Assembly: GCF_055900595.2 (NCBI RefSeq)
Contig: NZ_CM148325.1
Length of the DNA: 64,000 nt
Strand: one strand, 5' to 3'
In this document: positions 45,001 to 48,000 of the stretch, in pieces
How the letters are laid out: each line of letters opens with the position of its first letter
How positions within the stretch are numbered: position 1 is the first letter of the stretch
Made by a program: the position numbers

Positions 45001-48000
45001 CGGTGCAGGTAGATGACTGCGACCAGATCATGATGATCACCGATGCCGGTACGCTGGTACGTACTCGCGTTTCTGAAATCAGCATCGTGGGCCGTAACAC
45101 CCAGGGCGTGATCCTTATCCGTACTGCGGAAGATGAAAACGTGGTGGGTCTGCAACGTGTTGCTGAACCGGTTGACGAGGAAGATCTGGATACCATCGAC
45201 GGCAGTGCTGCGGAAGGGGACGATGAAATCGCTCCGGAAGTGGACGTTGACGACGAGCCAGAAGAAGAATAATTTCATCGCCTCATGCCAAAAGGGAGTT
45301 ATCTCCCTTTTTTGAATTGAAGTCCAGGCTGCAAAGTCTGGGCTTTTGTCGTATTAGGGCGCGGTAAAGTTTTGCTGTACCCATAAAAAATGGCTGGCTT
45401 TACACAAGGAATGTGGCAATGGGTAGTGAAAAAAAGGCGAAAGGCTGGCGGTTCTATGGTCTTGTAGGTTTTGGCGCAATAGTACTGCTTTCCGCTGGTG
45501 TCTGGGCATTGCAATATGCTGGTAGTGGGCCAGAAAAAACGTTGTCGCCGCTGGTGGTACACAACAATCTGCAAATCGATCTCAATGAGCCGGATCTCTT
45601 TCTCGATAGCGACTCTCTGAGCCAGCTTCCCAAAGATCTTCTCACTATTCCGTTTCTTCACGATGTTCTAAGCGAAGATTTCGTTTTTTATTATCAGAAC
45701 CATGCCGACCGTCTGGGCATTGAAGGCAGCATTCGCCGCATTGTCTACGAACACGATCTCACACTAAAAGATAAGCTCTTTTCGTCACTCTTAGATCAGC
45801 CCGCGCAGGCGGCGCTATGGCACGATAAACAAGGCCATCTTTCTCATTATATGGTGCTGATCCAGCGAAGTGGTTTAAGCAAGCTGTTGGAGCCATTGCT
45901 GTTTGCCGCTACCAGCGACAGCCAGTTAAGTAAAACGGAAATCAGTAGTATTAAGCTAAATAGTGAAACCATCCCGGTTTATCAGTTGCGCTATAACGGC
46001 AATAACGTCCTGATGTTCGCAACTTATCAGGACAAGATGCTGGTGTTTTCCAGCACGGACATGCTGTTTAAAGATGATCAGCAGGATACCGAAGCCACGG
46101 CGATCGCAAGTGATTTGTTGAGCGGTAAAAAACGCTGGCAAGCCAGCTTTGGCCTGGAAGAGCGTACTGCCGAAAAAACGCCAGTACGCCAGCGCATCGT
46201 GGTCAGTGCAAATTTGCTGGGTTTTGGCTACCAGCGATTAATGCCTTCTTTTGCTGGTGTGCGCTTCGAAATGAGCAACGACGGCTGGCACAGTTTTCTG
46301 GCGTTAAATGATGAATCCGCAAGCGTAGATGCCAGTTTCGATTTTACGCCTGTATGGAACAGTATGCCTGCAGGGGCCAGCTTCTGTGTGGCGGTGCCTT
46401 ATTCACATGGTATTGCTGAAGAGATGCTTTCCCACATCAGCCAGGAAAACGACAAGCTCAACGGGGCGTTAGACGGTGCTGCGGGGCTGTGCTGGTATGA
46501 AGATTCAAAATTGCAAACTCCGCTGTTTGTCGGTCAGTTTGATGGCTCTGCCGAACAAGTGCAATTGCCAGGAAAACTGTTTACGCAAAATATTGGTGCG
46601 CACGAAAGCAAAGCCGCAGAAGGTATATTGCCAGTAACCCAGACGCAGCAGGGCGAAGCGCAAATCTGGCGTCGCGAAGTGAGTTCCCGATACGGTCAGT
46701 ATCCGAAAGCACAGGCGGCGCAACCAGATCAATTAATGTCGGATTATTTTTTCCGCGTGTCGCTGGCGATGCAAAACAAGACGATGCTTTTCTCCCTCGA
46801 TGACACGCTGGTCAATAACGCGTTGCAAACACTGAATAAAACCCGCCCGGCAATGGTGGATGTGATACCCACTGAAGGCATTGTTCCGGTCTATATCAAT
46901 CCACAAGGCGTGGCGAAACTGCTGCGTAACGAAACGCTGACCAGTCTGCCGAAGAATCTCGAACCGGTTTTTTATAACGCCGCACAAACTTTATTAATGC
47001 CGAAGCTGGACGCTTTATCTCAACAACCGCGTTATGTCATGAAGCTGGCCCAGATGGAACCCGGTGCCGCCTGGCAGTGGCTACCCATTACCTGGCAGCC
47101 ACTATGAGGCACGGGCTGCTGGCGCTGATTTGCTGGCTGTGTTGTGTTGTTGCTCATAGCGAAATGCTGAATGTCGAACAATCGGGGCTGTTTCGCGCCT
47201 GGTTTGTGCGTATTGCACAGGAACAGCTTCGCCAGGGGCCAAGTCCGCGCTGGTATCAGCAGGATTGTGCGGGCCTGGTGCGATTTTCGGCGAACGAGGC
47301 GCTGAAAGTTCACGACAGCAAATGGCTAAAAAGTAACGGTATAGCAAGTCAGTATTTGCCGCCTGAAATGACGCTAACACCTGAACAGCGTCAACTGGCG
47401 CAAAACTGGAATCAGGGGAACGGAAAAACCGGCCCCTATGTGACCGCGATTAATTTGATTCAGTACAACAGCCAATTTATTGGCCAGGACATAAACCAGG
47501 CGTTGCCTGGCGATATGATTTTTTTCGATCAGGGCGATGCCCAGCACTTAATGGTCTGGATGGGGCGTTACGTCATCTACCACACCGGAAGCGCCACGAA
47601 AACTGACAACGGAATGCGCGCAGTCAGTCTGCAACAACTTATGACATGGAAGGACACCCGATGGATACCCAACGATTCCAATCCCAATTTCATTGGCATT
47701 TATCGTTTAAATTTTCTGGCGCGATAGCAGCGTGCTTGTGCCTGTCTCTTGTGGGAACAGGGCTTGCTAATGCTGATGATTCGCTTCCTTCCAGTAACTA
47801 TGCGCCGCCCGCCGGGGGAACATTCTTTTTGCTCGCTGACAGCAGTTTTAGCAGCAGTGAAGAGGCGAAAGTGCGACTGGAAGCGCCGGGGCGTGATTAT
47901 CGGCGTTACCAGATGGAAGAGTACGGCGGCGTGGACGTTCGCCTGTATCGTATTCCTGACCCGATGGCATTTTTGCGCCAGCAGAAAAACCTGCATCGCA

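Follow-up and report, generated by a model that had tools for sequence, protein, structure and literature searches.

A probable start of the alpha-2-macroglobulin gene yfaS inside yfaT, and the conservation of the resulting 67-nucleotide overlap

Where does the translation of yfaS begin? In a stretch of 64,000 nucleotides of Escherichia coli DNA (contig NZ_CM148325.1, assembly GCF_055900595.2), which is called the window throughout, the first ATG codons of the yfaS reading frame lie within the gene upstream, yfaT. YfaT belongs to the DUF1175/MagC family and YfaS is a bacterial alpha-2-macroglobulin (A2M). A search of the YfaS protein with the pattern C.EQ found the CxEQ thioester motif to be absent, and YfaS is therefore the E. 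coli counterpart of MagD, the A2M of the type II operon magABCDEF of Pseudomonas aeruginosa. A sequence-only reading of the locus had described an overlap of up to about 80 nt and had offered two explanations, extensive translational coupling or a true start at a non-ATG codon near 47700. Our analysis points with good confidence to ATG 47661 as the best start of yfaS, and to an overlap of 67 nt which is real and conserved. The coordinates of all features are collected in Table 1.

Both genes are on the plus strand, and yfaS is read in the -1 (+2) frame of yfaT. The frame opens at 47607, directly behind an in-frame TGA, and its first two start codons are ATG 47646 and ATG 47661, which would give overlaps of 82 and 67 nt, respectively. 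The sequence-only reading was right in placing both of them inside yfaT in another frame, in ending yfaT at 47727, the last base of its TAG (47725-47727), and in naming these two as the only ATG candidates; no other start codon precedes the signal-peptide core. Beyond 47661 and before the mature protein, the in-frame ATG, GTG, TTG, CTG and ATH codons are limited to ATA 47724, TTG 47736, CTG 47742 and GTG 47751, with ATA 47724 the only one between 47664 and 47735. The non-ATG start near 47700 can be set aside, as the in-frame codon at 47700 is TTA and no such start exists in the frame. Nor is the end of yfaT an extension specific to E. coli, since in 18 of 18 homologues, from E. coli to Methylococcales, the protein stops at the same residue (...RLNFLAR/SQ).

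The candidates differ in their initiation signals. ATG 47661 is preceded by the Shine-Dalgarno (SD) sequence ATGGAAGGA, with a duplex energy of -5.5 kcal/mol and a 6-nt spacer, and the energy needed to open the RNA at this site is 7.9 kcal/mol. At ATG 47646 the opening energy is 6.0 kcal/mol and there is no SD within 20 nt. TTG 47736 has no usable SD (-1.5 kcal/mol at a 15-nt spacer) and an opening energy of 19.0 kcal/mol, and GTG 47751 has no SD and an opening energy of 16.5 kcal/mol. Translation of yfaS would accordingly be expected to begin at ATG 47661, in the -1 frame of yfaT and with 67 nt of that gene still to come. The ribosome-binding site would be internal and formed by conserved codons of yfaT, with Trp-Lys-Asp supplying the SD GGAAGGA, Arg-Trp (CGA TGG) the AUG, and the Gln-Gln-Leu-Met-Thr codons upstream a stretch that is rich in A and little structured. 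Such a start, which lies 64 nt upstream of the yfaT stop codon and has a strong SD to itself, would not depend on a terminating ribosome. Of the coupling suggested earlier, the start inside yfaT is retained, while the mechanism looks like ordinary initiation at an internal SD and AUG; the overlap itself is narrowed from the earlier estimate, with its upper limit of about 80 nt, to 67 nt.

The conservation of this start was followed in 92 yfaT-A2M junctions, the window included. Eighty of them are from species genomes, mostly Pseudomonas (73 sequences, P. aeruginosa itself not being among the loci), with Escherichia whittamii, Escherichia sp., E. albertii, two Superficieibacter, Enterobacillus and Yersinia as the species outside Pseudomonas. 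Junctions from Salmonella, Aeromonas, Chania, a Methylococcales metagenome-assembled genome (MAG) and seven metagenomic loci, with YfaT 47-56% identical, were added. The position corresponding to ATG 47661, here called -67 after the length of the overlap, is ATG in 86 loci and GTG in three, and in these 89 of the 92 the frame is open into the A2M gene. The carriers are the Escherichia species, Salmonella, Superficieibacter, Enterobacillus, Yersinia, Chania, Aeromonas, the 73 Pseudomonas, the Methylococcales MAG and those metagenomic relatives whose YfaT is 48-56% identical. The start is accompanied by an SD of about -6 kcal/mol or stronger in 86 of the 89, and 61 loci share the 32-mer ATGACATGGAAGGACACCCGATGGATACCCGA without any difference. 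In L083, L084 and L086, the three that have no -67 start, the SD reaches only -1.5 to -3.3 kcal/mol and the start is at -4 or +5; two of them carry a stop codon at -46 in that frame, i.e. the start and the full SD are lost together. A start downstream of the yfaT stop, which the sequence-only reading had named as the arrangement that would speak against its overlap, was found in one distant locus only (L084, at +5), and this locus has no -67 start; among the 92, 89 have -67 and 74 also have a start at -4.

We propose that the overlap is ancestral to the magC-magD or yfaT-yfaS pair of Gammaproteobacteria and some more distant relatives. The order of magC followed by an A2M gene, and hence the -67 start, appears to be specific to one clade. 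DUF1175 proteins at 30-40% identity (L098 and L099) occur in another gene order or on contigs which are too short, and are uninformative on the junction. In L099 (2501-4641), a very distant DUF1175 locus, the next gene encodes a SpoIID domain, with an ATGA overlap, and not an A2M.

The most specific evidence comes from the codons of yfaT itself. In the 73 distinct Pseudomonas sequences, whose G+C content at third codon positions is 0.82, codon usage at the junction was compared to the codon use in the same loci as background. Codon -22 (numbered back from the stop), the arginine codon which supplies the A of the ATG, is CGA in 73 of 73 sequences against a background of 1.5%. Rare choices are likewise fixed or nearly so at codon -20 (Ile, ATA in 67 of 73, background 0.8%) and codon -27 (Thr, ACA in 65 of 65, background 1.9%), and codons -30 (Gln, CAA) and -19 (Pro, CCC) are both invariant in all 73, with backgrounds of 21.5% and 18%. 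The pairwise rate of synonymous codon differences is 0.30 in codons -175 to -34, 0.035 in codons -30 to -19 and 0.28 in codons -18 to -1; the middle value, a drop of about 9-fold, is the lowest of all 12-codon windows in the gene. This constrained patch of 36 nt differs between E. coli and the Pseudomonas consensus in one base only. A ribosome-binding site would be expected to have roughly this size and position. Folding of the 151 nt around the junction gave no more stable structure than that of shuffled sequence (z +1.2), and RNA structure was on this ground rejected as the source of the constraint. Within Escherichia, substitutions in 47635-47727 number 0 in E. albertii, 1 in Escherichia sp. 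and 2 in E. whittamii, compared to 5-10% for the remainder of the gene and 13-28% directly past the stop, where the signal-peptide core is encoded.

The yfaS frame is also open across the overlap more than chance would give. When the yfaT codons of the overlap are reshuffled among synonyms, the A2M frame stays open in 13.5% of cases in E. coli; the corresponding chances are 0.12-0.14 for Escherichia, 0.15 for Yersinia, 0.18 for Chania, 0.25 for Superficieibacter and 0.42-0.47 for Enterobacillus, Salmonella and Aeromonas, the chances of 0.12-0.25 being those of low-GC genera. Every one of the 89 loci with a -67 start has this frame open.

What does the overlap encode? Signal peptides were judged by our own heuristic for n-, h- and c-regions, and not by SignalP; a Sec signal peptide (signal peptidase I) was taken to need a positive charge in the n-region, at least 10 uncharged, hydrophobic residues in the h-region and a small-x-small motif for cleavage. 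From ATG 47661 it finds two Lys or Arg residues in the n-region, an uncharged core of 19 residues and an A-N-A site before Asp. The hydrophobic core sets in where yfaT stops, at about 47712-47721, and a junction of small-x-small followed by [DE][DE]..P.S.Y is present in most homologues. As had been noted from the sequence, the predicted signal peptide begins within the overlap, and its charged n-region from 47661 is encoded there. The 22 overlapping codons would encode a long, positively charged n-region of a predicted Sec signal peptide of 38 residues, and with the core and the cleavage site between ANA and DD just past the yfaT stop, the mature periplasmic protein would not be affected by the overlap. 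The homologue MagD has been located experimentally in the periplasm (PMC3735191), and TTG 47736 and GTG 47751 leave only 13 and 8 residues before the cleavage site, with no n-region and a shortened core; a start upstream of the core is for these reasons needed, and the YfaS product is probably exported.

The same heuristic finds 14 loci in which only the starts at -82 (the position of ATG 47646) and -67 precede the whole hydrophobic core: four Escherichia, two Superficieibacter, Salmonella, P. schmalbachii, P. jinjuensis, a Pseudomonas MAG, and L082, L085 and L087/L088. In two of them -67 is the sole remaining start, as the GTG at -82 is closed by an in-frame TGA in Salmonella and the -82 codon of L082 is CTG. 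The core begins inside the overlap in 10 loci; that of L082 reads MAAHVRQPKLHW-IFPLLFSFLLTGFSLLVGGSGALA, with cleavage before HD, and those of L085, L087 and L088 begin at about the same position.

Two other types of export signal were considered and rejected. YfaS has three cysteines, C25 and C27 within the signal peptide and C1189, and there is no lipobox cysteine at its predicted cleavage site. The sequence I22-A23-A24-C25 (47727-47741) resembles a lipobox, but only seven residues separate K17 and C25. Nor are the cysteines conserved: Escherichia sp. (L003) has Y/S in their place, and Superficieibacter and Pseudomonas lack the one of the lipobox; MagD has been described as free of cysteine (PMC3735191). 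The MDTRR sequence of Pseudomonas could be read as a twin-arginine signal. The two arginines are imposed by the MagC codons for Pro-Asp and correspond to QR in E. coli, and about 20 residues lie between them and the hydrophobic core.

The start at -4, present in the 74 loci mentioned above, is an ATG which overlaps a TGA stop (ATGA) and is directly followed by a classical signal peptide. All 74 are among the 83 loci with a TGA stop, and the codon before the stop usually ends in a rare A (CGA). In the nine loci with a TAG or TAA stop the codon at -4 is ATA in every case, and E. coli has no -4 start since its yfaT stop is TAG. A single change from TGA to TAG would remove such a start. The family would have two in-frame starts, both kept in most Pseudomonas, Yersinia, Chania and Aeromonas loci, with the lineages of Escherichia, Salmonella and Superficieibacter keeping the internal one only; the lineages with a TAG or TAA stop would depend on it. 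A wider picture, which we regard as tentative and rather unlikely as a whole, would have an anciently conserved, functional overlap of 67 nt with a ribosome-binding site overprinted on the invariant W-K-D-T-R-W, two in-frame starts in most Pseudomonas and several enterobacterial genera whose precursors mature to the same protein, and an A2M output partly independent of MagC/YfaT and possibly under CsrA/RsmA control. If this were true, the overlap would exceed the limit of 60 bp above which a systematic survey found no real case.

Several observations weigh against a start at 47661. The SD is weaker in two genera which depend wholly on -67, being GGAATGA in Salmonella and GGAACGA in Superficieibacter. 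An n-region of 22-47 residues is unusually long for a Sec signal peptide, and the peptides were judged by a heuristic of our own. In Pseudomonas the overlap outside the 36-nt patch (18 codons) has a normal synonymous rate, and the n-region peptide is therefore under little amino-acid constraint. The low diversity of Escherichia begins about 190 nt upstream of the overlap, E. albertii having 6 differences in the 192 nt of 47448-47640 where the 5' half of yfaT has about 14%; strong amino-acid constraint or a recombination tract may be responsible, and the low diversity supports constraint but is not specific to the overlap. The -4 ATG of Pseudomonas is also kept against codon bias, the last codon being CGA in 35 of 38 cases of arginine, and the annotated and published start of MagD is the ATGA at the magC stop, with a signal peptide of 21-26 aa (PMC3735191, PMC5764988). 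Since the -4 ATG is also held and the published MagD peptide assumes it, the constrained patch of Pseudomonas could serve something besides, or instead of, initiation. No precursor N-terminus and no initiation peak for YfaS or MagD is given in the papers on MagD, the literature on MagC/DUF1175, the main text of the papers on RsmA modelling and on RsmA CLIP-seq (cross-linking and immunoprecipitation with sequencing) or the INRI-seq supplements, as far as these sources go.

One such function would be a regulatory RNA site. The patch could mainly be a binding site for a protein such as CsrA/RsmA which gates A2M translation, an explanation that is compatible with initiation at 47661 and that we consider unlikely, though it fares better than the three which follow. 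The sequence ACAUGGAAGG (47645-47652) fits 9 of 10 positions of (A/U)CANGGANG(U/A), a second GGA is found in CGAUGGAUA, and in all three GGA motifs are inside the constrained patch, one of them overlapping the SD. The constraint reaches about 26 nt upstream of the AUG, and overproduced RsmA abolishes the synthesis of MagD, which a retS mutant makes in larger amounts (PMC3735191). On the other hand CANGGANG occurs 20 times in the window where 30 are expected by chance, and the match carries no weight alone. Sites of this type have A(N)GGA in the loop of a hairpin and usually come in twos, one of them covering the SD; here the GGA motifs are not displayed on any predicted hairpin, and shuffled versions of the region fold just as well. 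The documented direct target of RsmA is the magA leader (PMC3735191), which is enough to explain an effect on the whole operon, and the main text of the RsmA CLIP-seq paper does not mention the mag genes.

That yfaS starts at the first ATG of its open frame, 47646, with an overlap of 82 nt and a precursor of 1539 aa, is improbable in our view. The position is start-capable and open in 83 of the 92 loci, its A comes from the rare Thr codon ACA that is fixed in 65 of 65 Pseudomonas sequences, and the site is easily opened. It lacks the SD described for 47661. Six loci, Aeromonas and L082 among them, have CTG at -82, and in Salmonella the frame from there is closed by TGA; -67 persists in all of these. 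The conservation of ACA is explained by the -67 site, its A being 15 nt upstream of the -67 ATG and within the expected footprint of the ribosome. In the public protein collection the 1534-aa and 1504-aa forms are present and the 1539-aa form is absent.

Less probable still is a start past the yfaT stop, at GTG 47751 or TTG 47736, possibly by re-initiation at the TAG, which would abolish the long overlap. Current annotation speaks for it: the RefSeq E. coli genomes annotated by PGAP start the A2M at GTG 47751 in 5 of 5 cases, leaving no signal peptide, and 1504-aa forms predominate among the cluster members listed. TTG 47736 is only 8 nt past the stop, and a survey of co-directional overlaps that exceed 60 bp judged none of 715 to be genuine, the longest real one being holD-rimI with 32-56 bp (PMC2478687). 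Against this, both codons are without a usable SD and in stable structure (16.5-19 kcal/mol), and the 8 or 13 residues which they leave, with no charged n-region, would not allow export although the family is periplasmic. They are also poorly conserved: the GTG at +23 is absent in E. albertii and Superficieibacter, and the TTG at +8 in E. whittamii, Escherichia sp. and E. albertii. Neither the fixed rare codons nor the open frame would be explained. Pipelines avoid calling long overlaps because of the outcome of that survey. In Salmonella, L082 and L087 the gene callers place the A2M start downstream as well, giving products without a signal peptide, and the A2M genes of Aeromonas and Chania are called with the overlap of 67 nt. 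The curated record of E. coli K-12 MG1655 has yfaS as a pseudogene which starts 67 nt inside yfaT, i.e. at ATG 47661.

Partial synthesis of YfaS as a YfaT-YfaS fusion, by a -1 frameshift at T_TTA_AAT (47706-47712) or A_AAT_TTT (47709-47715), is hardly credible. Both heptamers fit X_XXY_YYZ in the yfaT frame, a -1 slip on either leads into that of yfaS, and the corresponding site of Salmonella reads T_TTA_AAC. Apart from a single Superficieibacter locus that has one of the two, however, they occur in Escherichia and Salmonella only and are missing from the other genera, and the AT-rich codons used there for Arg-Leu-Asn-Phe are enough to produce them; no stable downstream structure is predicted, and the fusion would bury the signal peptide internally.

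The operon is compact. The window segment is gyrA-yfaA-yfaT-yfaS-yfaQ-yfaP on the plus strand of E. coli, and the context of yfaS is tightly packed genes on that strand for DUF2138, DUF1175/MagC, DUF2300 and DUF2135 proteins, and not pbpC. Pfam matches identify YfaT (PF06672, 1.5e-58, with a weak match to NlpC/P60), yfaA (DUF2138, PF09909), yfaQ (DUF2300, PF10062) and yfaP (DUF2135, PF09906), and in YfaS the MG2 domain (PF01835, 1.8e-26), the bait-region domain A2M_BRD (PF07703, 1.3e-17) and the A2M domain (PF00207, 3.2e-12). NCBIfam has no model for YfaT or YfaS. The yfaA-yfaT junction is an ATGA overlap (47104-47107), the yfaT start having no usable SD and an opening energy of 19 kcal/mol; the TAA of yfaS is directly followed by the GTG of yfaQ (52263-52268), and yfaP starts 4 nt past the yfaQ stop (53913-53922). 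After yfaA, only yfaS has a strong SD of its own. No internal sigma-70 promoter was found near 47600.

Table 1. Features of the yfaT-yfaS junction and the two genes (window coordinates)
Feature	Position	Strand	Remarks
yfaT	47104..47727	+	DUF1175/MagC, NlpC/P60-like; 207 aa; stop TAG 47725-47727
In-frame TGA closing the yfaS frame upstream	47604..47606	+	5' limit for any yfaS start
Constrained 36-nt patch CAACTTATGACATGGAAGGACACCCGATGGATACCC	47635..47670	+	yfaT codons -30 to -19; -26 to +10 around the A of ATG 47661
Alternative upstream ATG, 82-nt overlap	47646..47648	+	less likely start
Shine-Dalgarno GGAAGGA for ATG 47661	47648..47654	+	6-nt spacer CACCCG; from yfaT codons Trp-Lys-Asp (TGG AAG GAC)
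yfaS	47661..52265	+	type II / MagD-type bacterial alpha-2-macroglobulin; 1534 aa from the best-supported start ATG 47661
67-nt out-of-frame overlap	47661..47727	+	encodes YfaT residues 186-207 and YfaS residues 1-22 (signal-peptide n-region)
Predicted 38-residue Sec signal peptide of YfaS	47661..47774	+	cleavage before D39 (47775); c-region ANA
ATA where most relatives have the ATG of ATGA	47724..47726	+	E. coli reads GCG CGA TAG (ATAG); second start absent
GTG used by RefSeq/PGAP as A2M start	47751..47753	+	1504-aa product; judged incorrect

Two observations concern the surroundings of the operon. Just 3' of gyrA (45290-45315) a GC-rich hairpin is followed by a T-run (AAAAGGGAGTTATCTCCCTTTTTT) and resembles an intrinsic terminator; if real, it would imply a separate promoter of the yfaA operon in 45320-45410, and a consensus scan of 45000-55500 listed neither the hairpin nor a promoter-like site in that interval. 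In another E. coli strain (L001; NZ_CP098223.1, 1-2637, upstream of ubiG) the autotransporter gene yfaL is split by an IS3-family transposase, and the window differs there; the yfaT-yfaS junction of this strain is identical to that of the window.

In practical terms, a start at 47661 means above all that current automated annotation misplaces the start systematically. Whatever is built on the 1504-aa form, be it a prediction of localisation, a construct for expression or an alignment of orthologues, would be wrong. Long same-strand overlaps are routinely dismissed as annotation errors, and that of yfaT-yfaS is backed by fixed rare codons, the roughly 9-fold synonymous drop, the open frame and hydrophobic cores inside the overlap. 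It shows that the codons for a conserved motif in the upstream protein can hold a ribosome-binding site, and suggests that the synthesis of the A2M is not bound to follow that of MagC/YfaT. In published fractionation and immunoprecipitation experiments MagC was undetected and MagD readily detected.

Among known systems the closest is magC-magD of the P. aeruginosa magABCDEF operon (PMC3735191, PMC5764988), which has the same pair in the same order, DUF1175/MagC followed by an A2M without CxEQ, together with genes for DUF2138, DUF2300 and DUF2135, and an A2M with a cleavable, non-lipoprotein signal peptide. The internal SD and the ATG at -67 are the same in the 73 Pseudomonas loci described here. 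The E. coli operon differs in having five genes instead of six, and in that MagD was published with the ATGA start at the magC stop, whereas E. coli has ATAG there and must use the internal start. Pairs coupled by ATGA at -4, which work by termination and re-initiation (PMC10666635), represent the junction type of yfaA-yfaT and of most Pseudomonas magC-magD; E. coli yfaT-yfaS, with its start 64 nt upstream of the stop codon and a strong SD of its own, is not of this type. The overlaps accepted in the 2008 survey (PMC2478687) are likewise same-strand and out-of-frame, with the downstream start in a conserved 3' end of the upstream gene and conservation among orthologues at the nucleotide level. 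In comparison, yfaT-yfaS is longer, with 67 nt beyond the limit of 60 bp, and is spread more widely, across Enterobacterales, Aeromonadales, Pseudomonadales, a Methylococcales MAG and unclassified metagenomic relatives, and the overlapping part of its downstream product is the n-region of a signal peptide and not mature protein. It is a modest exception to that survey, and a well-supported but modest case of a type of feature already known.

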